A stretch of DNA of 64,000 nucleotides from the NCBI RefSeq assembly GCF_030684315.1, contig NC_081354.1:64392321-64456320 (forward strand). The letters are read 5' to 3'. Shown piece by piece: positions 3,781 to 64,000 of this stretch. How positions within the stretch are numbered: the first letter of the stretch is position 1; each line of letters opens with the position of its first letter. The notes beneath the pieces were generated by a model that saw nothing but the letters and a program-made list of their open reading frames with translations, searched no databases and was not told where the DNA came from. Source of the DNA: Stegostoma tigrinum (lineage: Eukaryota). The translations under genes were made by a program, and so were the position numbers.

Positions 3781-4006
3781 GATAACAAAGGGTGGAGCTG
3801 GATGAACACAGCAGGCCAAGCAGCATCTTAGGAGCACAAAAGCTGATGTTTCGGGCCTAGACCCTTCATCAGAGCTCTCTGATGAAGGGTCTAGGCCCGA
3901 AATATCAGCTTTTGTGCTCCTGAGATGCTGCTTGGCCTGCTGTGTTCATCCAGCTTCACACTTTGTTATCTCGGATTCTCCAGCATCTGCAGTTTCTATT
4001 ATCTCT
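3781..4006 (+). mobile_element. Non-autonomous fold-back derivative of the PLE 3' end (hairpin 3781-3970 plus 36-nt tail)
   Basis: ~94-bp inverted arms homologous to 39738-39830, each with the ctgatgaaggg..cccgaaa motif. Flanked by the duplication caagcaattt(t/c)tat (3767-3780, 4007-4020). Confidence 0.92.
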
Positions 4007-5542: not shown

Positions 5543-5664
5543 AGATAGTAGGAACTGCAGATGCTGGAGAATCTGAGATAACAAGATGTAGAGCTGGATA
5601 AACGCAGCAGCTCTTCTGATGCTGCTTGGCCTGCTGTGTTTATCCAGCTCTACACCTTGTTATC
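5543..5664 (-). mobile_element. Internally deleted fold-back derivative of the PLE 3' end
   Basis: Reverse tail (ggaactgcagatgctggagaat) plus inverted arms gataacaag..../....cttgttatc. Duplication acaaattg(c/t)tcaag on both sides. Confidence 0.88.
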
Positions 5665-6639
5665 ACAAATTGTTCAAGCAGGGATTGGCGGTAAAAACAC
5701 AAATGAGACCAAAGTTACTTAACCTTTTGTGGTTCACTTCCCTTGCAATGCTAGGTGGATTGTGGCAGGAGTGATAGAAATTTGACAAGGAAATGAATGT
5801 GCTAGCTCTTGATTTTATGCTAAAATTTCCTGTTGAATCTCATGAGGGGTAAATTTCTACACTTAACTGAAATGCCACAGATATTGACAAAAAATTAATA
5901 TCACTAACTCTCTGACTACCTTCAGTCAAATAAACATTGTAGAAAATCTGGGATATCAGTCACAGATCAGAGTAAGCCACAATCCAGTTTCATAATTGTC
6001 AATTCACTTTAATAAAATGTACATCAAGTAGCCTTCCCTGTCAGTTGGAGAGTTAAAATATGAATGTTTAACAAGCAACTTCATTTTTAATTGTGCAAAA
6101 GAGCAATAATTTTTAAAATTACATTGTTTTGATCATTCGTGTACCACAGGAGTTTTCTTAAAGCCTTTAGAGAGATGAGCACTGTGGAGGCTGAAATGCA
6201 TCATTTCTCGCAACGTTTCCATGTTGATTTAATGCCCTCCTTTTCTCCTACTCTTTGTGCTATTGTTGCACTGGCCCTGGTGGAGAGTTGTTATAATTTG
6301 TTAACAGTTTAATTAGTCAAATTGTAGATTTGTTGGTGATTCTATTATTAGAAAAATGTCTCGACATCAAACATACTACAAAATGTCAGTCACTATAGCA
6401 AATGACGGATGTAATTAAATATGTTGCGAGTCTTAAACTTAGAAATGCTTGTATTTTTATAAACTCAATTTATAATTTGTACGTTTTAATAAGGAAGGAA
6501 CTATCACCATACATTCGATCTCGGTTAAAATCTAGTATATTTTCTAATTTCTGTCACTCAATATATGATATCACTAGTATATTATATATATTTATTTTTC
6601 CCTATTTCTACAGCCACTTATCCTGCATGCTGTCAAAAT

Positions 6640-20415: not shown

Positions 20416-20579
20416 CCTAAGTACCTTTCAAATTGAAATTAAGGTGAATCGGCTTTTCCTTTTCCTGGGATTACCATGCAAATGGAAGCTGTGGATGAAT
20501 ATCTTCCTTCCATCCTCTAAAAGCAAAATGCCACATATCTATCCAAATCCAAGGAGTGGTGGGGTGGGGCAGGGAGTGG

Positions 20580-21505
20580 GAGCAAAAATAAACATTTTGT
20601 AATATGAGGTGCTGCATTTTGATAAGGCAGATCAGAATGTATATACTTAGTGGTAAAGTCCTATGGAATAAAGAGACTGCTTGTCTTTTTTGGTCAGTGC
20701 ATTGAGTACAAGAGTTAGGAGGTCCTGTTGTGGCTGTACAGGACATTTGTTAGGCCTCTTTTTGGAATACTGTATTCAGTTCTGGTCTCCCTCCTGTAGG
20801 AAAGATGATGTGAAACTTGAAAGGGTTCAGAAAAGGGATAGCAGGACCTGCAGATGCTGGAGAACCTGAGATAACAAGGTGTAGAGCTGGATGAACACAG
20901 CAGGCAAAGCAGCATCAGACGAGCAGGATAGCTGACATTTCGGGTCTAGGCCCGAAATGTCAGCTATCCTGCTCGTCTGATGCTGCTTTGCCTGCTGTGT
21001 TCATCCAGCTCTACACCTTGTTATCTCAGGGTTCAGAAAATATATACAAGGATGTTGCCAAGGTTGGAAAATTTGATCTATGGGGAGAGGCTGAATAGGC
21101 TGGGGCTATTTTCCTTTCATTGCAGGCTGAAGGGTGACCTTCGAGGTTTATAAAATCATGAGGGGAATGGATAGGGTGAATAGCCAATGCCTTTCCCTAG
21201 GGTAGAGGAGCCTAAAACAAGAGGGCATAGGTTTAAGTTCAGAGGGGAAAGGTTTAAAAGGGACCTAAGGGGCAAAGCTTTTACACACTGGGTGGTGAGT
21301 GTATGGAATAAGTTGCCAGAGAAAGTGGAGGACGCTGGTATAATTACAACATTTAAGAGACATCTGGATGGATACATGAATTGGAAGGGTTTAGAGGGAT
21401 ATGGGCCAAATGCTGACAAATGTGTCGAGATTGATTGAGGATATATGTTTGCATGGATGAGTTGCTTGGAAGGGTCTGTTTCCATGCTGTACATCTGTAT
21501 GACTC
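20580..21505 (+). mobile_element. CR1 3' fragment interrupted by the PLE palindrome
   Basis: LEYCIQFWSP...KLERVQK before the insertion; TRGHRFK...WNKLPEKVEDAG after it. Confidence 0.88.
20835..21027 (-). mobile_element. Fold-back PLE derivative (perfect 80-bp arms) inserted in a CR1 fragment
   Basis: Arms 20865-20944 and 20951-21030 are exact reverse complements. 13-bp TSD agggttcagaaaa (20822-20834, 21028-21040). Confidence 0.93.
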
Positions 21506-30043: not shown

Positions 30044-30385
30044 CACAGTGGCTCAGTGGTTAGCACTGCTGCCTCACAGTGCCAGGGACCTGGGTTTGAT
30101 TCCACTCTTGCGTGACTGTCTGTGTGGAGTTTGCATGTTCTTTTGGTGTCTGTGTGGGTTTCCTCTGGGTACTCTGATTTCCTCCCACAGTCCAACGATG
30201 TGCAGGTTGGGTGGATTAACTGTGCTAAATTGACTCAGTGTCCACAGAAGTGCAGACAAGGTGGATTAGCCGTGGGAAATGCAGAGCTAGGGGCATAGGG
30301 TAGGAATGGGGAGTGGGTATGGGTGGGATGCTCTTCAGACGCGATTGCTGAATGGCCTGCTTCCACACTGGAGGGATTTTGTGAT
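30044..30385 (+). mobile_element. HE1-like tRNA-derived SINE
   Basis: A box (gtggctcagtggttagc), B box (gggtttgattcc), core ctgtgtggagtttgca..gtgggtttcctc, and CR1-like tail ggcctgcttccacactggaggga. Confidence 0.88.
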
Positions 30386-32236: not shown

Positions 32237-33165
32237 GACGGAGTTGAAGGCACATGGCACACTTGCCTTCATCGTTTGGGGTAGAGAGTATAAAAAATGG
32301 TGAGTCGCATTGCGGTTGTATGAGGCTTTAGTTAGGCCATGTTTGGAATATTGCGTACCGTTCTAGTCATCACACCATCAGAGGATGTGGGGGCTTTGGA
32401 GAAGGTACAGAAAAGATTCACCAGGATATTGCTTGGTTTGGAAAGTGTTAGTTATGAGGAGGGATTGGGACAAACTTGGCTTGTTTTCACTTGAATGTTG
32501 GAGGCTGAAGGGCCAACTGAGAGAAACCCCAGATAGTTGGACTCATTTTTCCCAGGGCCAAAATGTCAATTTTCAGGGGAAATGGGTTAAATGTAAAAGA
32601 GAAATGATTTAAAAGATATGGGAGAGGCAAGTTTTTAGAGGGTAGTAAGTACCTGGAATGCACTGCCAGAGGAGATGGTGGAGGCCGAAACAATAGCATT
32701 GTTAAAGAGACATCTTTACAGGTACAAGAAGAGGTGGTGAATACAGGGATTACAGACCATGTAGAAGCAAAAGGTTTTTAGTTCAGAAAAATTTGGCTCA
32801 GTAGTTAGCACTGCAGCCTCACAGCGCCAGGGACCGGGGTTCGATTCCAGCCTCGGGTAACTGTCTGTGCGGAGTTTGCAAGTTCTCCCTGTGTCTGCGT
32901 GGGTTTCCTCCGGGTCCTCCGGTTTCCTCCCACAGTCCAAAGATGTGCAGGTTAGGTGGACTGGCCATGCCAAATTGCCCGTGGTGTTCAGGGGTGTGTG
33001 GGTTATAGGGGGATGTGTCTGGGTGGGATGTTTCAAGGGGCAGTGTGGACTTGCTGGGCTAAAGGGCCTGTTTCCACACAGTAGGGAATCTAATTGAAAA
33101 ATGTGTGTTGGTGCAGATCCTCGGTGAGCCAAAGGGCCTGTTCCTGGGCTGTTGCTGAAGTGTTG
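32237..33165 (+). mobile_element. CR1 3' fragment with a SINE inserted in its 3' UTR
   Basis: ttagttaggccatgtttggaatattgcgt..ttctag (LVRP.LEYC..FW). The tail resumes after the SINE with gagccaaagggcctgttcct. Confidence 0.8.
32794..33094 (+). mobile_element. HE1-like tRNA-derived SINE (young)
   Basis: tggctcagtagttagc...gggttcgattcc with retained CpGs; tail gggcctgtttccacacagtagggaatctaat. Confidence 0.92.
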
Positions 33166-34534: not shown

Positions 34535-34853
34535 AGATTAGAATAGATTCCCTCCAGTGTGAAAACAGGCCCTTTGGCCCAACAAGCCCACACTGCCCCT
34601 TGAAGAATCCCACCCAGACCTATCCCCCTATAACCCACACACCCCTAAACACTACGGGCAATTTAGCATGGCAGATCCACCTAGCCTGCACATCTTTGGA
34701 CTGTGGGAGGAAACCGGAGCACCGGAAAAAAACCCACGCAGACACGGGGAGATTGTGCAAACTCCACACAGACAGTCGTCCAAGGCTGGAATCGAACCTG
34801 GGTCCCTGGCATTGCAGCCTCACAGTGCTAACCACTGAGCCACCGTGCCACCC
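34535..34853 (-). mobile_element. HE1-like tRNA-derived SINE
   Basis: Reverse complement of the 32794 family, with complete 5' end gggtggcacggtggctcagtggttagc. Confidence 0.92.
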
Positions 34854-36245
34854 CAAGGAAAACATCTATCTACTCTCTTTTCATAGTTGAATTGCTTCAG
34901 CCCAGGCAACATCTTGGGAAATCTCTCTGTACCCTCTCTAATGCAATTGCATCATTCCTATAGCATGACAATCAGAACTGCACACAGTACTGTGGCTGTG
35001 GTCTAAATAATATTATTAAGTACAGCTCTATCAGAGCCTCCTTGCTGTTCTATTTCATGCAACGACTAACAAAGGCCAGCACCCCATATATGGTCTTAAC
35101 CACCATATCTACCTGTCCTGCTGCCGTCAAGGATCTACGGACATGCACACAAACATCTCTGTGATCCTCTATACTTCCTCCGGTCCCAACATTCAACTGT
35201 ACTTCCTTGCCTTGTCGGTCCTCCCAAAATACATTACCTTTTACCTTTGAGGATTAAATTCCATTTGTCACTGTTCAACCCATCTGACCAGCTGGTCTAT
35301 ATTGTCCTGTAGTCTAAGGCTTCCCTATTCACCACTTAATCGAGTTTCATGTTGTCTGTGAATGTACTCAAGATACCGTCTACTTTCTTGCCTAGATCAT
35401 TAATGCAAGCAACAAACAATAAGGGACCCAGCAGTAAACCCTGTGATATGCCAATTGACACATGTTCCTGTCACAAACACACCCTTTCAAACATCGCCAT
35501 CTTGCTTCCGTCTCTGAATTAATTTTGGAACCAATTTGCCACATTGCTTTGGATTTCATGGGCTGTTAGCCTCTTAACTAATCTGCCATGCAAGATCTTG
35601 TCAAAAGCCTGACTGAAATTCATGTAGACTACATTAATTGCATTTATACTCATCCACCCACTCGGTCACTTCCTCGAAAAAATCAATCAAGGTTATTAAG
35701 CATGATCTCCCCCTTACAAAGTGATGTTGACTATTCTGATTAATCCTTGCCTCTCCAAGTGGAAATAATTCTGTCCCTTCGGAATTATTTCAATTGTTTT
35801 CCTGCCACATATGTTAAGTTCAGTGGCCTTTAGTTTCCTTGTTTATTTCTACCATTCTTCTGGAAAACAGAACCTCTAGTCATCTGTGGCCAGAGATGGT
35901 GTGAAACTTAATGTCAGAGCCCCTGTAATCTCCTCCCTACAGTAACTTGGGCTGTATCTCATTTGGGCCTGGGAACTTATCTTTTTTCAAGCTTGTTAAA
36001 ACTCGTTCAAGTACATCGCAATTCCCCTCCCTTGATTACTGTACCCCACATCATCCTTTGCTGCAGCAAATACAGATGTAGAGTCTCTCATTTCAATACC
36101 TCCGCTATGTCTTCCTGCTCCACACATGGATTGACATGTTGGTCCCTAACAAGCTCTATTCTTTCTCTATTCTCTATTCTCCAGCATCTGCAGTTCCCAT
36201 TATCTCTGATACTATTTTAACCTCACTGCGAAGCCTCTTCCAGGG

Positions 36246-39200
36246 ATGCCTAACCTGAAGAAGTTACCCTCCTCCCTCCAGACCAACTTCAGGGAATCTC
36301 TCTCCCATTGCAACTCTCTTGTAATCTCTTCGGCCTTGAAACTGCTCGACCATGTCCTGAAGCAAACCAGGTACCACAGCCACATCACCTTCCTCAGCAC
36401 CTGCCTACGGAACCAGATCATCCCCAAGGGACTACAGTCCACATTTCAGCCTTCCCAATTTTGCCCCAACCGTGACCACCTCTACACCCACAGCATTCAG
36501 ACCCTTCAGAAGCGTTTCTCCCTGCGAGTCCTGAAACAGACACTTGCAGCCATGCGCCGGCACCTCCAGGCACTGCAATCCAGCCTGCCCCAGCTCAGAG
36601 CCTCCCTCTCCCAGACCTGCAAAGGACCTCTGCTGTTTTTTATCCTCCGCAGGATCCACAGACTGAACACCCAGTTTCACTCAGCTTTGCTGGACACCAA
36701 AAATTGTAAGTACAACCAACTCACTGGCCCCTGCCACCCACAAGAGGATTCCTGCGCCTCCCAAATCCTGAGTCTGTCCCTGCCCCTCCCCCACCATGCA
36801 CCCGCCGCCATTGACCATGAGGACATGGCCGGAGACCCCACCGATGACGTCACATCCACCTCCGCTGGCCACAGAACTTCCGGAACCGCTGCTGCAGTCA
36901 CCACCTCCACTTCCAGGTACAACACCCCACACACCACCCTCACCGCAGCTGCTGCCGCCCACCCCGATCCTCCAACCGCCGACGGAATCCCGCCCATGGC
37001 CGACGGAATCCCGCCCATGGCCGACGGAATCCCGCCCACGGCCGACGGAATCCCGCCCACGGCCGACGGAATCCCGCCCACGGCCGACGACCTCATCGCC
37101 CCGCCCACAACCTCCGCAGCCAGCAACCCCAGAGAAGACAGCCACACTGAGCCCTGCCGCATCTTCACCGTCCCCCCAGACCTCCCACTGACTGAGGAAG
37201 AACGGTCAGTCCTTAGTAAGGGGCTCACCTTTTGTCCCCCTACAACCACACATCAACGAATACCAGTCACGGTTGGACATAGAGCAGTTTTTCCGCCGTC
37301 TTCGCCTCCATGCCTACTTCTTCAACCGGGAACCTAACCCTCCTTCCACTGACCCCTTCACCCGCTTCCAACACAAGTCCTCCTCCTGGACACCACCCCC
37401 AGGCCTCCTACCCTCCCTCGACCTCTTCATCTCCAACTGCCGTCAAGACATTAACCGCCTCAACCTCTCCACCCCTCTCACCCACTCCAACCTCTCCCCC
37501 GCAGAATGGGCAGCCCTCCGCTCCCTCCGCTCCAACCCCAACCTCACCATCAAACCCGCAGACAAGGGTGGCGCAGTGGTAGTATGGCGCACTGACCTCT
37601 ACATCGCCGAGGCCAGACGCCAACTCTCTGACACCACCTCCTACCGCCCCCTCGATCGTGACCCCACACCCGAGCACCAAACCATCATCTCCAACACCAT
37701 TCACAACCTCATCACCTCAGGGGACCTCCCACCCACAGCCTCCAACCTCATTGTTCCCCAACCCCGCATGGCCCGTTTCTATCTCCTTCCCAAAATCCAC
37801 AAACCTGCCTGCCCTGGTCGACCCATCGTCTCAGCCTGCTCCTGCCCCACCGAACTCATCTCCACCTATCTGGACTCCATTTTCTCCCCTTTGGTCCAGG
37901 AACTCCCCACCTACGTCCGTGACACCACCCACGCCCTCCACCTCCTCCAGGACTTCCAATTCCCTGGCCCCCAACACCTCATATTCACCATGGACGTCCA
38001 GTCCCTATACACCTGCATTCCGCATGCAGATGGCCTCAAGGCCCTCCGCTTCTTCCTGTCCCGCAGGCCCGACCAGTCCCCCTCCACCGACACTCTCATC
38101 CGCCTAGCTGAACTCGTCCTCACACTCAACAACTTCTCTTTTGACTCCTCCCACTTCCTACAGACTAAGGGGGTGGCCATGGGCACCCGCATGGGCCCCA
38201 GCTATGCCTGCCTCTTTGTAGGTTACGTGGAACAGTCCCCTCTTCCGCACCTACACAGGCCCCAAACCCCACCTCTTCCTCCGGTACATTGATGACTGTA
38301 TCAGCGCCGCGTCTTGCTCCCCAGAGGAGCTTGAACAGTTCATCCACTTCACCAACACCTTCCACCCCAACCTTCAGTTCACCTGGGCCATCTCCAGCAC
38401 ATCCCTCACCTTCCTGGACCTCTCAGTCTCCATCTCAGGCAACCAGCTTGTAACTGATGTCCATTTCAAGCCCACTGACTCCCACAGCTACCTACAATAC
38501 ACATCCTCCCACCCACCCAGCTGCAAAAATTCCATCCCCTATTCCCAATTCCTCCGCCTCCGCCGCATCTGCTCCCACGATAAGACATTCCACTCCCGCA
38601 CATCCCAGATGTCCAAGTTCTTTAAGGACCGCAACTTTCCCCCCACAGTGATCGAGAACGCCCTTGACCGCGTCTCCCGTATTTCCCGCAACACCCCCCC
38701 CCCCCCCCCCCCCCCCCACAACCGCCCTAAGAGGATCCCCCTCGTTCTCACACACCACCCTACCAACCTCCGGATACAACGCATCATCCTTTGACACTTT
38801 CGCCATTTACAATCCGACCCCACCACCCAAGACATTTTTCCATCCCCACCCCTGTCTGCTTTCCGGAGAGACCACTCTCTCCGTGACTCCCTTGTTCGCT
38901 CCACACTGCCCTCCAACCCCACCACACCCGGCACCTTCCCCTGCAACCGCAGGAAATGCTACACTTGTCCCCACACCTCCTCCCTCACCCCTATCCCAGG
39001 CCCCAAGATGACATTCCACATTAAGCAGAGGTTCACCTGCACATCTGCCAATGTGGTATACTGCATCCACTGTACCCGGTGCGGCTTCCTCTACATTGGG
39101 GAAAACCAAGCGGAGGCTTGGAGACCGCTTTGCAGAACACCTCCGCTCAGTTCGCAACAAACAACTGCACCTCCCAGTCGCAAACCATTTTCCACTCCCC

Positions 39201-39597
39201 CTCCCATTCTCTAGATGACGTGTCCATCATGGGCCTCCTGCACTGCCACAATGATGCCACCCGAAGGTTGCAGGAACAGCAACTCATATTCCGCCTGGGA
39301 ACCCTGCAGCCTAATGGTATCAATGTGGACTTCACCAGTTTCAAAATCTCCCCTTCCGCCACCGGATCCCAAAGCCAGCCCAGTTCGTCCCCTCCCCCCA
39401 CTGCACCACACAACCAGCCCAGCTCTCTTCCCCAATTCCCCCCCCACCCCCACCCCACCCACCCACCCACTGCACTGCATCCCAAAACCAGTCCAACCTG
39501 TCTCTGCCTCCCTAACCGGTTCTTCCTCTCACCCATCCCTTCCTCCCACCCCAAGCCGCACCCCCATCTACCTACTAACCTCATCCCACCTCCTTGA
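36246..39597 (+). pseudogene. Disrupted single ORF of the Penelope-like element (about 1100 codons when repaired)
   Basis: ORF-track pieces 36246-37337, 37273-38292, 38609-38794, 39008-39214 and 39079-39597 join after removing single extra bases in homopolymers (~37230, ~38237, ~39102, ~39188). One in-frame TGA at 38792-38794. Confidence 0.88.
36978..37089 (+). repeat. 21-bp coding minisatellite (gccgacggaatcccgccca[c/t]g, 5.3 copies) encoding ADGIPP(T/M)
   Basis: Directly visible tandem units; frame-preserving. Confidence 0.95.
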
Positions 39598-39739
39598 CCT
39601 GTCCGTCTTCCCTGGACTGACCTATCCCCTCCCTACCTCCCCACCTATACTCTCTCCACCTATCTTCTTTACTCTCCATCTTCGGTCTGCCTCCCCCTCT
39701 CTCCCTATTTATTCCAGTTCCCTCTCCCCATCCCCCTCT

Positions 39740-39769
39740 CTGATGAAGGGTCCAGGCCCGAAACGTCAG
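39740..39769 (+). ncRNA. Minimal type-I hammerhead-ribozyme-like motif in the PLE 3' end
   Basis: CTGATGA-A-[gggt ccag gccc hairpin]-GAAA-C-GTC contains the CUGANGA and GAAA boxes, stem II and a GUC cleavage triplet. Minimal hammerheads are an established feature of PLE termini. Stem I is very short and activity is untested. Confidence 0.7.
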
Positions 39770-41637
39770 CTTTTGTGCTCCTGAGATGCTGCTTGGCCTG
39801 CTGTGTTCATCCAGCCTCACATTTTATTATCTCTATTCTTTCTCTAATTGTTTTCTTGCCCTGAGTACACTCTCAAATTGCTTTTAATTTTCTTTAATGT
39901 TACCCACTCATGTCCTCTCTTTCTCAATTTCTTCTTTCAGCAACCCATGACCTTTCTAAACTGCTTTAGGACAATCACTGTTTTAAACCTTTTGGATATA
40001 TCATAACTTCTTTTTTCGTTATCTTATTCTGTACATTCCTTGGCACCCTGGATTATTTGGTTTTAATGGTCCCACCCTTCAATTTTACAGGAACATCTTA
40101 GCCCTGCACACCCACTTTCACCTCTTTAAATGTCTCCCATTGCTCTGTGGATTTTACACCAAGTGGTTGCTCCCAGTCCACTTTGGCCAGATCCTGCCTT
40201 GTCTCATTGAAATAATCTTCCCCCAATTCAGGACCTTTGTGGTTCATTTTTGGCCTTTTCCAAAATTACTTTAAAACTTAGGGTCACTGTTTGGTATACT
40301 TAGCTTTTTGCAGGATTGCATCTGCTTCCTCAGCACTTCACTTTGGCATTGACTGTGTGATGACCATCTTGTCCCACTTCTTCCTGAGCATTTTCTCGAA
40401 GACTTCCTAGACTGCTTCAGTGTGGCCCTTCTCTTTTCATCTCTACAAAGGCGTTCAGTGTGTTGCCTGAGTTCCTTGAAGCATGCTGTCTCCCAGGTCA
40501 TGCCGTTCTTAAACAGTTTTTCACTTCACAATGCCTAATACAAGGACATCTACTATCGGTTGTAGCCACTATGCTCCTTCGCTTAGGAGATGCAGGCTGG
40601 CGTGAAGTAATGCTAACTAGTGATTAAGCTGTGTTTGCCGCTCATGATTTAGACTACCTGCTGATGCCTGTAGCTGCAGAACAATACATTTAATGGTGAC
40701 TGTTCATTATAATACTTGACACAAAATCGGCGTTTTGCTGGCATCACGTTGCACCATCATTGGGTAATTGCACATCATGAGGTCTAAACTCACTTTTCGG
40801 GCAGTATCCAATTTAGCCCCCTGTGCAGAATCAATCCTATGATAATGTGAAAATATATGTCAAACATTTTGGAAATATGTAATTAAAACAGGTATTTTTG
40901 GAAACTTGCAGAAGGCATATTGGCATATAAAGAAAAAAATGGATGAGTTATCATGAAAGTCTGTGTGCAATATATTTCTGTTACATATTGATTTTATTTG
41001 TTTTGTATTTTACTGTCTCACATGCAATAACAGTTAGATAGATCAGACCCAGCAACTCCTAATGGCTTCCTTGTCAGTTTTAAAGTAACTTTGCAGGGGA
41101 AAAATACCTTTGTTTGAAAAGTAGCTTGTGCTGAAAGTATTTGATTATTCTGAATTGTCATGAAGTTATTCAGTCAAGCCACTAGTTTATCCTAATTTTA
41201 TTCTCCCGTTCAAGTATTCGTATGATTTTGGATAACTTCAGCTGTACTGTTTGAAGGACACGTATTTTGGGTGGACATTATTATAGTCAGACTGAAGTGA
41301 TTTTTTTTAAATTAACAGCAACATTTCTTCCAGTCCAAAGTGGCTGCCTGGCGTGGTGACACCTGTCTCGTGAACGGAGAATTCCATTTATCTGTATCAA
41401 AAATGATAAACAGTTTTAAAATACCAACGGATTAACTGTTGAAAAAAGAAGTTTAATGTAGTAGCCAGCTTTAGGCCAGGAGTTTGATGGACTTAGCTTG
41501 GTTTCCAGTGAGAGTTGCCTATTCTTGTTGTTCTGTACAAACTAATACTTACTGTTTACTGTTTCGAATTCCTGATTACAGTGTATTCCACAAGTGGAGT
41601 AAAGCACATGCTAATTGATGGTGTTTCTCTTTTACAG

Positions 41638-41739
41638 TCTGACAGCAATGCAAGCTTCCTCCGTGCTGCCAGAGCAGGGAATCTGGACAAAGTGCTTGAA
41701 TACCTCAAAGGAGGGATAGATATCAACACATCAAATCAG
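41638..41739 (+). CDS. ANK2: Ankyrin-2 coding exon ([34 protein letters not shown]), first ankyrin-repeat exon
   Basis: Polypyrimidine acceptor tttctcttttacag|TCT and donor CAG|gtgtgt. 102 nt, phase 0. The peptide is nearly identical to recalled vertebrate ANK2 [34 protein letters not shown]. Confidence 0.95.
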
Positions 41740-44700
41740 GTGTGTACTGTTATTAGCATTTTGGAATACTGTGATTTGTTACTGAAAATTCCTATGACTT
41801 GAGTAAAAATGTGTTAGAATTTTGCTGGGCTTTTATGGACATACAGTATTACATCTGCACAAAAGTGTGTTTCCACTGTTTGTAAAGTTCCAAGGAAATT
41901 TGCAGGCATCATCCTCTTTATAATACATAATTCACCATCCAGTCTTTCCTGTCGCCCCATTTCATTGCCCGTGTTTCATTGTGTAGGATTATGCGGTCTG
42001 TGTTGAAGCCAGCGTGCTTACTGTTAGCTATGAAGTAAATATGTTTTGCTAAGTATTCCAGGGATCTTTATAGTGAGAATGCCCACTCTGTTGCTGTATA
42101 GTTTGCTGCAACTGATTACAGGGTTCTTGTTTCCAGTGTGTGTCTAGAATTGTGTCAAAGCAGCCAAACACAAGCCCTCACCCCCTAAACTGATGCCTAA
42201 AACTGGCCAGGAAAGTAAATACAGTAAAAGAAAATGTCATCTTTTTTAACATCAAACAAATTGATGTACGTATTCAGCAAAAGTAGAAGCTAAATGACTG
42301 TGGAACAGTTTTTTAAAAAAAGCAAATTTAGAATAATTTAACTGATCATTTAACAGAATTGCATGATTCTAAATTTTTTTCATATAATTTCTGTTTATCA
42401 AAATGGATTAGTTACACTACCATTAAAAATTCAGTTATGCCTGATGAGCAAAGTGCAACTTTTTAAAGGAGATTCCAGTCAAGCGGTAAGAGCGAGAGAG
42501 TTCAAGTCCTCACTGGAGTGAGGTGGATGTTCAGTGGGGCCAAACAGTACAGACTGTATTGAGACAAAGTGCAGGATTAAAATCAATTGTCTCCTAACTT
42601 TAGGATTTTTTTTATATTTCTGGTTTACCTATGACATTATCCATAATTACCTTAAATCTTAGTTCGGCATTATTTGCACGTGCTCAGTATCTTGAAATTG
42701 CAATCAAAGTAATAAGGATGAATGCTGACATTTTACTGTCAACTCCTCCTGTCCATTGCAAAATCTAGCACAATCATTCATTAGTTGTGCATCTTTAGAT
42801 GTTTCCATTGCATTGTCACATTCAGTATGTTATATTCTAGTTCATCTAATCATTAAGTAGCTTGTGAACCTTAATTGCCGTCAAAATCATTTTGGAAATA
42901 ATGCGTCACTACTTCTGTGGCAGAAACAATAGAACATGAATTAATTTTGTTGCATGCTACTTGTTTATGTAGGTTTAGACATTTTGTTTTATTGTTGCAG
43001 TTAACCATTCACTTTGAGGTTCAGCAGTAATAAAGAAGGTTTGAAACACTGTATTTGCTGTCAGACTAGGCCACAAATGCACTATTACACAGTGTGTCTG
43101 AGCCAGTAAACTAGTGCGGATAAGGCACAGGTAAAAACAGATCTTAACTTCTGAATCTAGCAATGTAAAACCATTTCAGTTTAAATACATTCCCTTGTTT
43201 GCAGAAGTGGGAACAGGTTGTTTGCTAGTTGCAATATTATGCACAAGTTGTTTCTGTCTTGTGGAATCTGTCCCACATTCTCTGCTCTAAGCACAACCAT
43301 CTCCAGTCTCAATGTTCAAAGGACTTGATCTGTCATTCAGAGGGTTCACCGCAGATGACTCTAGAGATAATAGGCAATGTACTTTAATGTGTCAAGCCTT
43401 GTCTATCAGCTGGTGAACTTAATAACTATTTCTAAATTTTACCTTGGATACTAAGAAATATGTTATAATTTGTAATTATCATATCTTGTGACAAAAATTC
43501 AAATTTGTAAAGTTTGACCCTGTATACCAATCCAAAAGTGTAAACTAAATTCAAGAAATAATCAAGAATAGCATAAAAGTGAAGACACCAAATTCACAAC
43601 TTCACAAAAGTATTCACAATTGGGAACTTGGTGAGAAGTCTTCAAATTTGGTTTGATGGTTGTCGAGTAAAATTTGCACCTCTGGCATTGAACAGCTCCA
43701 CCAACAACATCATTTTTGCAGGTCCCTGGCAATGAAAATGCCAGTTGCTGGGGTAAAACAAAAATGAAAAGTTGATTTGCTGAGGAGCTCTCACCGCTGG
43801 TCACTTTTTCCAGAGAGAACCTGAAACCAGTGACAGCAACTTACACATCAGTGGTGTTATGGCGGTTGTTACGACTCCAGCTCATGGTATTATGAGATAA
43901 ATCAGATCCCAGGCAGAAACCTGACGTAATAGATCACATTTTGGTTTGCTTTGGTTTTAATAAAATGTCTCTTGCAGAAACATAAACATGCAATGTGGTA
44001 GATTTTACTTTCACAATGAAATCAAAGATTAGTAATAACACAAGTTGGGGAAAAAAATAAACCAAACACACTATTTTTGAATACCAATTGAAAAGTTTTA
44101 AATGCTCAGCAAGAGTATAATCCCATTACTCCCAAAATATTGCTACATAAATTGAAAAGAAACAAAACCACTTTTGTATAATTGGCAAAATACACCCCTG
44201 CCACCACACCAAAACCACCACTCTCACAACACTCACATCAGAGTCCTTATATTTCACACCTTAGTAGGTTTAAGTTACTTGTGACTTCAACTTTTAGACT
44301 GCAATTGCAGGTAACTTCCTACTGAAATTATTATACACCTGAGCTTCAATATGCTCAGCAATAAATAACCTCATTAGGATTTTATTCCAACATTTTTGGT
44401 CTGGAACTATCATTAATACACCTAATTTACCAAATATCTTTCCCTTCTCTGGAGCAGTGGTCTGTACAGCCATCCTATTCCAAGTTCTTCACTAGACTTC
44501 CCAAAACTCAAAGTCAAACTGAACCCAAAAGTATATGTTCACAAGTGATGGTGTTTCCCCAATGCTTAGAAAGGAAACAAGTTCCAGAAGTTACACTCAA
44601 ACCTTGTTGCCCCATTATTTACCTAACTGGGATGAAAAACTATCTAAGATAACAAATAAATCATTGATGGTGCTCAAAGACCCATCCATTTAAAAAAAAT

Positions 44701-50255: not shown

Positions 50256-50354
50256 AAAGGAAACTCAGCCCTTCACATTGCATCTCTGGCTGGACAAACC
50301 GAGGTGGTAAGAATTCTAGTGAAGCAGGGAGCCAATATCAACTCTCAATCCCAG
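50256..50354 (+). CDS. ANK2: Ankyrin-2 coding exon ([33 protein letters not shown])
   Basis: Acceptor tgtctctctttctag|AAA. 99 nt, matching ANK2 [33 protein letters not shown]. The donor at the expected position is CAG|gcaagt (GC-AG type). Confidence 0.93.
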
Positions 50355-52699
50355 GCAAGTAACTGAAACATGTCACAATCGACAATACTCTACAATTGGC
50401 CTAAAACTGGCAACACACAAGTTGCCTTCTATCAAGCAGTGTCATACTTTTTGATGTTAGCTCTTCTCCTAGTATCACTTTGCCATTCATCAATATGTGA
50501 ATTTATGAACCAGTTCTGAACCTTGAGTTTCTATTTCGACTGACTTGTCTTTAAAGCATTAAGCAAATGTATTGTAACAGTACTTCACCATTCAAAGTCT
50601 TTGAAAAATTGCTAGAGAATGATTTTTCATATATCCATGGGCACTGTTCAGTGCTTTTGTGTCTTTCCTATCATTTTGATAATTGAGCCTGCAAATTAAG
50701 AATTGCAGCCAATGTGGGACTGGGGAGTTCAGTGGAGACTGACTCTTCGCCCACAGCAATCAACGTGCTAACAGCTGACTTACAAACTGATAGGTTGATT
50801 ACAAGCCTTCAGAATGGAGTCTCCCCCTGTCAGAAGCTGCCAGCCCAGCAGAAGAGGTTAAGTGGCTTTCTTTCGCTTCTCAGTAGGAGGTTGTGTGGAA
50901 AAGGAGTTCAGGGGAGTTGGTGGCAATGGCAGGGATGTGGTTTTAAAAGACTGTTGCCATTCCTCCCATTTGGGCCTTCATTTGCTCCCAGGATGTGGAA
51001 GACTGATTCCCCGGCATCACCACCCGTGATAAACAGGCAGACAGGTTGCCCTGATTTCCCAGTCAGGAAACCAGCCACTTTTCTTCCCTGCCAGAGAGGT
51101 AGGTAATTGGGCTGGTGGTGAGTTGAGACAATTAAATTTGTGAGTTGATTGACCAATATAGAGCATTAAATGTTGGCAAATTGAGAAAATCCCCAGGGGG
51201 TCCCTCTAATCCAGCACTTAATTAGTGAGAGGTGGGGTGGTGAGAAGGGGCAAGGAGTCTCTCCAGAACTAACTTATCCAATTACTTTCTGATCTTACCA
51301 CTTCTCTTGACGACAACGTGGTGGAAAAATTGCCATTCAATATCTTTACAAATTGCTTATAAAGGCTCTGAGTTTGGAGTATGATTTGCAGTTTACAAAT
51401 TGCAGCCCTTATCACACGTTGTTATCCTTATAATATGCACTTGAAAGGGCATCTTAACCTGTAGCAAAAACAAAATAGTAGTTCGATACTACCTTGTCAC
51501 ATAACCTTGAGTATCCTTTAGGTCTGTGATTTATATTCTCTCCAAGTTATTTGTGTTTCCGATGCTTATTGTTTCACATTAAATGTTATTGCAATCCAGC
51601 TCCATGAGTCTATGCATATATATGTATTGTTTGCAAGTACATAATTTTCTCAAGTATCAGCAATAGTTAGTTAAGAAATTTAGCAGAATCTATCTTGCAG
51701 TTAATAATCCCTCAGCACTTAGTGGCAGCTGCAGAGCAGAGTGTAATATGATTCCCCAGGAGACATTTTAACTTTCACCATCATGCAGACAGCTGGTACG
51801 GGGATTAACCCCACTCCTCCCCGACAGACTGTGCCTTATATTCCTTCCCAGTGTGAGAAAGGTAACACAATAGTCATGGGCTGTTGAACCTTGAAGTCAA
51901 TTGGACAAATTAATTTGACAAAGATAGACTTGAGGAAAAGTTTACACAATGTGTTTGCCACTGTAACATTGAGCAATATATTCTGGTATAAACCAGGAAG
52001 AGGCCAAAAGTGACCACCATATTGGTAGTGACACCGTAGCCTCTGCTCAATATCATAGCCACAAGCCCTGAACCTTGTCCAGGTCTTGGGCTCATTTAGT
52101 ATTACCAACAAACTATTTGGATGCTCTTTAGCATCTTACTGGATTGCTGCAGTGGCAAATTAGCTGCCTTTTCCATGGAGCTACATGGAATGGAGGGGTG
52201 AAGATGAGATTAGGCTGACATCTAGCAGAGTTTGGTGAGTCCAGAAGGAAAATTAATGCTGCATTTAGTCTTAGTGAAATAGTTTTTTTTATCTTGAAGA
52301 AGCAAAAACTCGCTTTTGCTGAAAGGCTTCCACTGATCCCTTTTAAGCCACCAAGCACTGACCCCAGAAGCAGATCCTAATTGGCTAAGATGGTGGCCTA
52401 ATGCTGACATAGTTTGGTTAAAAGACCTGCTTTGGTTGGCTGCTGTGTTATCGTAGTTCAGGTTGTGGCTGTTAGGCTTTCTAGCTCTCACCATTCACAC
52501 CCCCTCAGCTTCCACCCATCGCTTCCACAGAATTTCATACTCTTTATTCTACCTCCATGCCAACACACGCCTCTTTCACCCACCCAAGTCTATGACGACT
52601 TAAACCCACATGTCACCTCCATAATCATTCACCCAGTATTCATCATGAGCAGACCTCAACAGCAATGTATAAATGAAAAGAAAACTAAAACCAATCCAA

Positions 52700-52888
52700 G
52701 ATAACAAAGTGTGCGGCTGGATGAATACAGCAGGCCAAGCAGCATCTTAGGAGCACAAAAGGCTGACGTTTTGGGCCTAGACCCTTCATCAGAAATTTGT
52801 GCTCCTAAGATGCTGCTTGGCCTGCTATGTTCATCCAGCTCCACACTTCGTCTCGGATTCTCCAGCATCTGCAGTTCCCATTATCTCT
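52700..52888 (+). mobile_element. Fold-back PLE derivative with partly deleted right arm and 36-nt tail
   Basis: Same arms and tail (attctccagcatctgcagttcccattatctct) as 3781-4006. A hammerhead-like motif remains only on the - strand, with GAAA changed to AAAA. Confidence 0.9.
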
Positions 52889-58346: not shown

Positions 58347-58657
58347 TGGACATCATCAGTTGAAATGTGTTAGTTAAGTGCAAGCAGGAACTATCATTTA
58401 ATGTTTATTGAAGTGTGCAGCCCCTCTAAATGTTTTGCACATCCATGCATGGTAAACTGAAAGGCTGACTTGTATATGGGCTACACAAGGACTTTTGGGT
58501 TGTTGAGTAGCCATGCAAATTAAAGGTGACCATTTGTGAGTAGATATTTTAAGTAGAAATTGATAATTATACTAGTCTCCGAAGCTGTTCCTAATGTTGG
58601 TTTCAACTCCCTTACCAAGGTGGTGTCCTGCCCTTGAAAACAGCCAGTCTTGGTATC

Positions 58658-58732
58658 TAGGCTTGAAACGTCAGCTTTGCTGCTCCTCTGATGCTACTTG
58701 GCCTGCTGTGTTCATTCAGCTCTACACCTTGT
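58658..58732 (+). mobile_element. Single-arm PLE 3'-end fragment
   Basis: taggcttgaaacgtcagctttgctgctcctctgatgctacttggcctgctgtgttcattcagctctacacctt, flanked by agtctt(g/a)gtatc (58646-58657, 58733-58744). Confidence 0.85.
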
Positions 58733-59034
58733 AGTCTTAGTATCCTGAAACTTCTGGAACATGGTACTATTTTAATATCTAGGTCAGGCAAGGGGAGCCA
58801 CGATTATACTTCCCTTGAATTAACTGCTTGTTCAGCTACTTTAAAAGGTTGGTAATGGAAGGTAATTTTCAAGTCAGCTATTTAAATTAAATAAGTGATA
58901 AATTAAGAAGCTTGTCTTGCATTTTACTTACTGCTGACAGCAGCCCTAAGATTAGTTAAATTGTTGTAAGGTAAAATTTCTGTCAAAGGACACAACAGAT
59001 GTATTGAGGCATTATTAATCTGTTGGCACGTGTG

Positions 59035-60799: not shown

Positions 60800-61142
60800 G
60801 AATCATAGAATCCTCACAATGAGAAAACAGGCCAGGTGGCCCAATGAGTGCACACCAACCCTCCAAAGTGTATCTCATCTAGACCCATCCCCCTGGTCCC
60901 TACTCTGTAACCCTGCATTTCCCATGGCTAACACACCTGATGTACACATCCACGAACACTACAGAGTAATTTAGCATGGCCAATCCACCTAACTTGCACA
61001 TCTTTGAACTGTGGGAGGAAACCAGAGCACTCCGAGGAAACCCATGCAGACACGGGGAGAGTATTCAAACTCCACACAGACAGTTGCCTGAGGGCGGATT
61101 CAAACCCAGATCCCAGGTGCTGTGAGGTACCAGTGCTGCCTC
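60800..61142 (-). mobile_element. HE1-like SINE (older)
   Basis: tgtgggaggaaaccagagcac..gaggaaacccatgcagacacggggaga..caaactccacacagacag. Confidence 0.88.
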
Positions 61143-62863: not shown

Positions 62864-64000
62864 TTCGCCTCCACGCTTACTTCTTTAACTGGGAGCCTAA
62901 CTCTCACTCCACTGACCCCTTCGCCCGCCTCCAACACAAGTCCCCTTCCTGGACACCACCCCCAGGCCTCCTACCCTCCCTCAACCTCTTCATCTCCAAC
63001 TGCCATCGAGACACTAACTGCCTCAACCTCTCCACCCCTCTCACCCACTTGAAACTCTCCCCCTCAGAACGGGCAGCCCTCCGCTCCAACCCCAACCTCA
63101 CCATCAAACCCGCAGACATGGGTGGCGCAGTGGTAGTATGGCGCATTGACCTCTACATCGCCGAGGCCAAATGCCAACTCTCCGACACCACCTCCTACCG
63201 CCCCCTTGATCATGACCCCACCCCCGAACACCAAACCATCATCTCCAATACCATCCATGACCTCATCACCTCAGGGAACCTCCCACCCACAGCCTCCAAC
63301 CTCATTGTTCCCCAACCCCACACGGTCCGTTTCTATCTCCTTCCCAAAATCCACAAACCTGCCTGCCCTGGTCGACCCATTGTCTCAGCCTGTTCCTGCC
63401 CCACCGAACTCATCCCCACCTATCGGGACTCCATTTTCTCCCCTTTGGTCCAGGAACTCCCTACCTACATCTGTGAAACCACCCACCTCCTCCAGAACTT
63501 CCAATTCCCTGGCCCCCAACACCTCATTTCACCATGGACGTGCAGTCCCTATACACCTGTATTCCTCATGCAGATGGCCTCAAGGCCCTCCGCTTCTTCC
63601 TGTTCCGCAGGCCCGACCAGTCCCCCTCCACCGACCCCCTCATCCGCCTAGCTGAACTCGTCCTCACCCTCAACAACTTCTCTTTCGATTCCTCCCACTT
63701 CCTACAGACAGAGGGGGTGGTCATGGGTACCCGCATGGGTCCAAGCTATGCCTGCCTCTTTGTAGGTTACGTGGAACAGTCCCTCTTCCGCACCTACATA
63801 GGCCCCAAACCCCACCTCTTCCTCCGTTACATTGATGACTGTATCAGCGCCGCCTCTTGCTCCCCAGAGGAGCTGTTCATCCACTTCACCAACACCTTCC
63901 ACCCCAACCTCAAGTTCACCTGGGCCATCTCCAACACATCGCTCACCTTCCTGGACCTCTCGGTCTCCATCTCAGGTAACCAGCTAGAAACTGATGTCCA
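62864..64000 (+). mobile_element. 5'-truncated second copy of the same Penelope-like element (RT region), running off the window
   Basis: Colinear and highly similar to ~37301-38462. Encodes IKPADMGG, FYLLPKIHKPACPGRPIVS and YIDD, with several small deletions and frameshifts. Confidence 0.95.

Follow-up and report, generated by a model that had tools for sequence, protein, structure and literature searches.

The window analysed here, a 64,000-nucleotide stretch of the Stegostoma tigrinum genome, carries at 20835-21027 an insertion of 193 nt flanked by two identical 13-nt copies of the TSD AGGGTTCAGAAAA (20822-34 and 21028-40, 13/13 identical). The insertion, hereafter called the palindromic stub, contains two exact reverse-complement arms (20865-20944 and 20951-21030) that match over 80/80 bp around the 6-nt loop TCTAGG, in agreement with the first-pass annotation of this DNA. 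When pairs are counted outward from the centre, 82/83 match, with a T/G pair as the sole mismatch. It is the longest perfect inverted repeat of the window at a spacer of up to 30 nt; the runner-up has 26 bp (3849-3902). The symmetry was also correctly described as extending 3 nt into the right TSD (21028-21030). Two of these three nucleotides are ordinary element-end microhomology and only position 20865 departs from the family, with C in the stub and T in the four other tail-bearing ends of the window. The predicted fold is a 166-nt hairpin of -169 kcal/mol as RNA and -110 kcal/mol as DNA. The insertion splits a high-copy host repeat, which we take to be a CR1-type LINE. In public contigs (4 of 24 listed runs, likeness 88, with 17,000-90,000 contigs of the inserted family per run), those representing the empty site continue past 20835 into sequence resembling that from 21041 onward, and the host repeat is deep in 4/4 runs. 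The coordinates of all features are collected in Table 1.

Table 1. Features of the palindromic stub, its surroundings and its relatives in the window.
Feature	Position	Strand	Basis or remark
High-copy host repeat split by the insertion; bounds approximate	20690..21290	+	empty-site contigs
TSD, left copy, 13 nt	20822..20834	+	identical to 21028-21040
PLE tail of about 31 nt, unpaired but for its last 3 nt; outer end is the second RT start (site B)	20835..20867	-	aligned to other tails
C in place of the T of other copies; forms a pair with TSD base 21030 and may mark the end of a template-switch tract	20865	+	copy comparison
Tail-bearing arm: PLE pLTR from the stem II 3' strand to site A	20868..20944	-	arm comparison
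Hammerhead stem II with CUAG loop, sense polarity, 10/12 self-complementary; this is the junction	20942..20953	+	descriptor, folding
Tail-less arm, reaching from stem II to site A (the first RT start, equal to the element end at 39833)	20942..21027	+	inner-end alignment, contig-end pile-up
TSD, right copy	21028..21040	+	first 3 nt inside the palindrome
Comparison stub	3781..4006	+	junction just upstream of CUGAUGA; 4/94 arm differences
Comparison stub	5544..5666	-	junction +37/+58; 2/34 arm differences
Comparison stub	52699..52886	+	junction -1/+32; 5/56 substitutions and a 3-nt deletion; lacks a clear TSD
Near-full-length frameshifted PLE of the same family as the stub; defines the terminus	36170..39833	+	RT with YIDD, CxxxxCxxC linker, VVY..YIG endonuclease motif

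Three consecutive ankyrin exons were found on the + strand at 41639-41740, about 47187 and 50256-50354, the third of which (50256) matches solved ankyrin-1/2 chains. By similarity to solved ankyrin chains the gene is ANK2-like. The first of these exons is about 21 kb downstream of the stub, and a search of the window upstream of 41639 for a first exon of the gene gave nothing convincing. Plausibly, the stub is situated in a long first intron of the ankyrin gene, and if it is transcribed, the modelled hairpin could be edited or diced. The window also holds an inverted pair of another dispersed repeat (32826-33092 and 34544-34810, 88% over 267 nt, 1.45 kb apart), which is present again at 30049-30232 and 60968-61137; these are probably SINE copies.

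The palindrome had been attributed to a Penelope-like element (PLE), and its layout and the near-full-length relative at 36170-39833 confirm this. The published PLE layout, as given in the cited sections, comprises an inverted pLTR, a one-sided 31-bp tail, a TSD and junction palindromes (PMC3846280; PMC8557442). In the stub, a head-to-head inverted 5'-truncated copy lies beside a direct copy, a tail in the 30-40 nt range occurs on a single end (20835-20867, and likewise in 4/4 stubs of the window), and the 13-nt TSD is in place. The tail aligns to the 5' start of the long element (36176-36207) and to the tails at 3973-4006, 5544-5574 and 52856-52886. The stub is a truncated head-to-head end of a PLE, which is a known insertion type. 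Such a structure is ordinary for PLEs and matters only as a pointer.

The long PLE has the organisation of a single ORF with RT and C-terminal GIY-YIG endonuclease, which is absent from the stub. It runs from site A to site A, is flanked by a 16-nt duplication and is interrupted by several frameshifts and one stop; the N-terminal portion of its ORF contains a 21-nt tandem repeat (36948-37110). The Pfam match of its RT to RVT_1 is weak (E=0.0086); at E<=1e-20 the RT finds 444 homologues, of which many carry RVT_1 and some GIY-YIG PF01541, and the closest of them (81% identity) bears the source label of a Chiloscyllium punctatum protein. A Pfam search of the frameshifted endonuclease pieces gave no match, and the VVY..YIG motif was read directly. 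The ORF at 38795-39214 includes the linker CNRRKCYTC. A CxxxxCxxC linker is given as a feature of the Neptune/Nematis group in the cited part of PMC8557442, and the motif points to a placement of the family near this group on sequence grounds. A second, 5'-truncated copy of the same ORF occupies 62864-64000, is 90-97% identical in ungapped blocks and runs off the window end.

Further family copies were sought in metagenome, prokaryote-genome and viral contigs, with 0 matches. Among the public contigs, three runs from two organisms (A and B) show the family at very great depth, and the run of organism D has next to none of it. Organism D has the host repeat in abundance but hardly any PLE terminus, so the family is either restricted to some lineages or strongly diverged in this organism.

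At the 3' end of the long PLE, a descriptor search located a minimal type I hammerhead core (CUGAUGA-stem II-GAAAC-GUC, 39740-39767) with a stem I of 2-4 bp. Judged by this descriptor, the pLTR carries a predicted ribozyme core of the kind described for PLE pLTRs in PMC4209133. An Rfam search for hammerheads gave none at the gathering or E<=10 thresholds. Rfam matches to miRNA families at 3781 were rejected as generic long-hairpin matches, far below gathering scores. Within the window the descriptor found cores only at 3872(-), 3879(+) and 39740(+), and none in 20835-21027. The symmetry axis had been placed on hammerhead stem II with loss of the CUGAUGA box, and both observations hold: 20942-20953 is identical to the stem II and loop that the copies at 3879 and 52699 have in their intact hammerhead, and the box is absent by descriptor. 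A CUGANGA box, stem II, GAAA and NUH are not found together on one strand of the stub, which is almost certainly an inert transposon remnant lacking an active ribozyme.

BLAST of the 193-nt insertion against the 64-kb window returned four two-armed stubs (3781, 5544, 20835 and 52699), a single-armed copy at 58656 and both ends of the long PLE. In each of the four two-armed stubs the arms stand head-to-head; one arm stops at site A, and its partner is longer by the tail of about 31 nt. A clear TSD is present in all except that at 52699. Counted from CUGAUGA, the inner ends are located at -4/-2 (3781), +32/-1 (52699) and +58/+37 (5544), and at +11 in the single-armed copy. In the palindromic stub they are at +8 for the tail-less arm and, for the tail arm, at +17 exactly or at +8 with two mismatches. 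The stem-II axis had been offered as a general clue to the origin of inverted PLE termini, a suggestion that the siblings do not sustain: only the palindromic stub has its junction on stem II (1/4), and the other three junctions show 0-1 nt overlap and no hairpin. The chance probability of at least one microhomology of at least 3 nt among four junctions is about 0.10.

The single-armed copy (58656-58740) likewise has its 5' end within stem II, with eight private letters in 84 and no TSD seen. Short copies reach at most 4 nt upstream of CUGAUGA, and 3/9 inner ends fall at -1 to -4 (3781-3876, 3875-4006, 52699-52795). The template just upstream of CUGAUGA is C-rich, giving a cDNA rich in G-runs. 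The limit on the inner ends suggests that the RNA begins, or that the RT is blocked, at a point upstream of the predicted cleavage site.

The real oddity of the palindromic stub is the presence of perfect arms alongside private variants, not its layout. The comparison of arm-arm divergence with divergence from the family, proposed earlier as a check, was run in the window and proved informative: the arms are 0/80 apart, yet share four private variants. The other three stubs have 11/184 substitutions between their arms (Fisher p=0.038), or 14/190 differing columns when gaps are counted, and carry 1, 0 and 1 variants that are common to both arms and absent from other window loci. Three of the four shared variants are firm transversions; one column is covered by a single copy of the same subfamily and may hold a subfamily letter. 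The first-pass annotation had called the arm-shared variants absent from other copies; this stands for the four columns and fails for the C>T in gacatttc, a CpG change also found in the right arm of the stub at 3781. At the sites listed, public contigs of three runs have the family letter instead of the stub letter in 94-95% of the depth at 20906/20989 and in 80-92% at 20975.

If the arms had aged independently at 5-6.5% each, 8-10 differences would be expected between them; the probability of zero is 3e-4 to 5e-5, which excludes independent ageing. RT errors copied by fold-back were considered as the source of the variants and rejected, because tail and arm are similarly diverged although the tail is unpaired (3/31 vs 4/77, p=0.41), and because four errors in 77 nt are too many.

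Hundreds of the public contigs end at 20866-20869 or 21027-21028; family contigs swamp the locus, and among those listed none is locus-specific across the palindrome. In two samples of organism A, the flank 20560-20707 was recovered with an identical sequence. An assembly or polishing artefact that made slightly different arms identical is unlikely. Inverted PLE structures do trouble assemblers, as stated in the cited part of PMC8557442, and the contigs listed include none that spans the palindrome, but three other window palindromes have kept their arm differences, one of them with a 33-nt identical stretch. Moreover, the shared letters are the minority and not the consensus letters in public contigs, and the flanks continue normally with a TSD, unlike those of a fold-back chimera.

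Further inverted joints within the arms occur in the contigs at other positions, some at multi-copy depth. Joints 20891 to 20978 (mirror 20914 to 21001) and 20904 to 20982 have depths of 542 and 1426, against about 6-20 for single-copy sequence, and one multi-copy joint carries an 8-nt insert resembling the PLE tail. It may be that certain palindromic stubs multiplied, either as units or as part of another repeat. Junctions on stem II would map collinearly to the stub in this comparison and are hence invisible there. Joints 20864 to 20942 and 21026 to 20869 were set aside as probable partial alignments.

With regard to the inversion, the stub was probably born by twin priming. The PLE protein would nick both target strands 13 nt apart and prime one cDNA on each, one starting at the tail-end RT start and the other at the tail-less RT start. 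Both cDNAs would stop early, within the hammerhead region, and would anneal at stem II and its loop, because cDNAs of the same polarity can pair only where the template is self-complementary; fill-in would then produce a head-to-head stub with its TSD. In line with this, 4/4 two-armed stubs pair one tail arm with one tail-less arm. A random stop does not account for the tail-less outer end, which coincides with the 3' end of the long PLE (39833) and with the contig-end pile-up. The central unpaired piece derives from the tail-less arm in 3/4 stubs, and in the palindromic stub sense stem II occupies the + strand centre (20942-20953), continuous with the tail-less right arm. For an anole PLE, cleavage and extension of both strands with two RT starts bounding the tail have been reported (PMC11167929, cited sections).

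Pairing of two cDNAs through their stem II sequences was calculated at -7.8 kcal/mol, the second best of 2346 pairs of cDNA ends (template: right arm of the 3781 copy; both 3' ends are paired in 38 of the 2346). The antisense fold-back hairpin at stem II, with 3 bp and -0.4 to -0.9 kcal/mol, is outside the ten best sites. The short overlaps at the other three junctions indicate that strong annealing is not required, and the position on stem II may be a coincidence. It should be noted that the account is based on n=4 stubs and that junction palindromes were interpreted as self-priming by Arkhipova et al. 2013 (PMC3846280, cited part).

The first-pass annotation had proposed such self-priming, in which a single cDNA folds on the ribozyme hairpin and primes its own second arm. 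This is rather unlikely for the stub, including the hybrid version discussed below. The axis lies exactly at stem II, as it predicts; self-priming has been put forward for PLE junction palindromes in the cited part of PMC3846280, and small-hairpin fold-back duplications at L1 breaks are described in that of 10.1101/2024.12.14.628481. A pure fold-back cannot supply the tail, however. It is disfavoured because a copy cannot exceed its template: the tail of about 31 nt sits on one arm, whereas the loop is in the polarity of the other, tail-less one. Fold-back of a tail-primed cDNA predicts the opposite loop polarity. Self-priming is further disfavoured because RT also starts at the tail-less outer end, and it has to contend with the weak hairpin and with the hairpin-free junctions of 3/4 stubs. 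Fold-back alone also leaves the four private variants unexplained, so that a divergent source or later conversion would still be needed.

A second arm contained within the first cDNA and a paired 3' hairpin start, which define a self-primed fold-back duplication, were not found here. Two routes could possibly reconcile fold-back with the structure. In the hybrid version, a tail-less cDNA folds, copies itself 3 nt into the target and anneals to a second, tail-bearing cDNA, which accounts for the loop polarity and the base at 20865 at birth. Alternatively, the spacer may have been inverted later. Template switching can invert a spacer according to the cited sections of PMC8604942, and the loop polarity of a single stub is therefore not proof against fold-back.

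After a twin-primed birth, a second step may account for the perfect arms. Once the arms had aged, a quasi-palindrome template switch would have copied the tail-less arm over the other arm and overrun by one base into the TSD (20865 T>C), so that the identical arms retain the private mutations of the donor. Later homogenisation had been the second of the two ideas in the first-pass annotation; it is the better one and the most likely reading of the perfect arms, at somewhat above even weight. The change at 20865 is the expected trace of right-over-left copying one base into the TSD and is seen only in this stub; perfect arms and a TSD-matching base in the opposite arm coincide in this single copy and are both missing from all others. 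The absence of arm differences and the excess of shared private variants over the sibling stubs agree with such a switch, and template switching is known to homogenise the arms of inverted repeats (PMC8604942, cited part). The stub at 3781, with a 2-nt spacer and longer arms, was not homogenised, which means that conversion is not routine.

The identical TSD copies, which have a probability of 0.19-0.26 if the insertion is old, would better suit a young one. In that case a transcribed source about 7% diverged would have been inserted by twin priming, with arms identical from birth and no later conversion. This is a less probable explanation. In its favour, apart from the perfect TSD, the window copies differ mutually by 2-9% private letters, and two other stubs each have one variant common to both arms. 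A young copy would, however, require a source that happened to carry at 20865 the very letter of the target. The longest contig pieces (best eight per run) include no close sibling, and the stub is diverged to a similar degree as the host repeat (about 13 majority differences over some 190 nt). Taken as a whole, twin-primed birth followed by a template switch is given about an even chance.

The origin of inverted PLE ends is stated as open in the cited sections of PMC8557442 and PMC11167929. A broader, tentative proposal is that such ends may arise by double TPRT, with a dimeric RT, two starts bounding the tail and joins at self-complementary motifs, stem II being among the strongest, and that the numerous shark palindromes are then episodically re-perfected by template switching. 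If true, these palindromes would preserve in the germ line of a vertebrate, and on a large scale, a natural record of how PLEs make their second strand and how palindromes are homogenised. A genome rich in short stubs with scoreable junctions and arm divergence would make twin priming versus self-priming, and the rate of arm conversion, countable.

In L1 twin priming, which generates 5' inversions, two target nicks each prime a cDNA, and the cDNAs are joined by short microhomology and flanked by a TSD. The proposed birth of the stub likewise involves two nicks, two cDNAs, a microhomology join and a TSD. In L1 the cDNAs copy different parts of the RNA, whereas in the stub the starts are 31 nt apart and the same stretch is copied, giving a palindrome. 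L1 twin priming is invoked in the cited part of 10.1101/2024.12.14.628481. In open-licence literature screened by title and start of abstract, no paper was found that applies twin priming or stem-II annealing to PLE inversions, and none that describes the shark PLE family of the stub. Extending twin priming to PLE inversions is a short step from published results, and the evidence for it here comes from four copies.

Non-LTR retrozymes, as presented in the cited sections of 10.64898/2026.07.22.740005, resemble the stub in being short non-coding derivatives of PLE pLTRs with type I hammerhead sequence. They consist of units in head-to-tail tandem, each with a complete hammerhead, whereas the stub is a single head-to-head unit without CUGAUGA and does not belong to them. 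The proposed homogenisation step resembles quasi-palindrome template switching (Ripley model; PMC8604942, cited part), in which an imperfect inverted repeat is made perfect in one event that removes several differences together, and the spacer may be inverted. The yeast examples given there measure 10-16 bp, unlike the 80-bp arms of the stub, for which an imperfect ancestor is presumed.

The closest resemblance in layout is to PLE inverted-pLTR insertions (PMC3846280 and PMC8557442, cited sections), with which the stub shares the head-to-head 5'-truncated copy, the tail of about 31 nt at one end, the TSD and the junction palindrome. It differs from them in that both halves are shorter than 110 nt and lack an ORF, the junction falls on stem II, and the arms, for all their private variants, do not differ from each other. 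In the anole Poseidon element PAc (Frangieh et al. 2024, PMC11167929), both target strands are cleaved and extended and two internal RT starts bound the tail; inverted copies are left unexplained in the cited sections of that paper. The shark family is distinct from PAc in its CxxxxCxxC linker of the Neptune/Nematis type and in that the ORF start is not in stem II. The two systems are alike in the use of uncleaved RNA, as three arms in the window extend upstream of the predicted cleavage site and of CUGAUGA.
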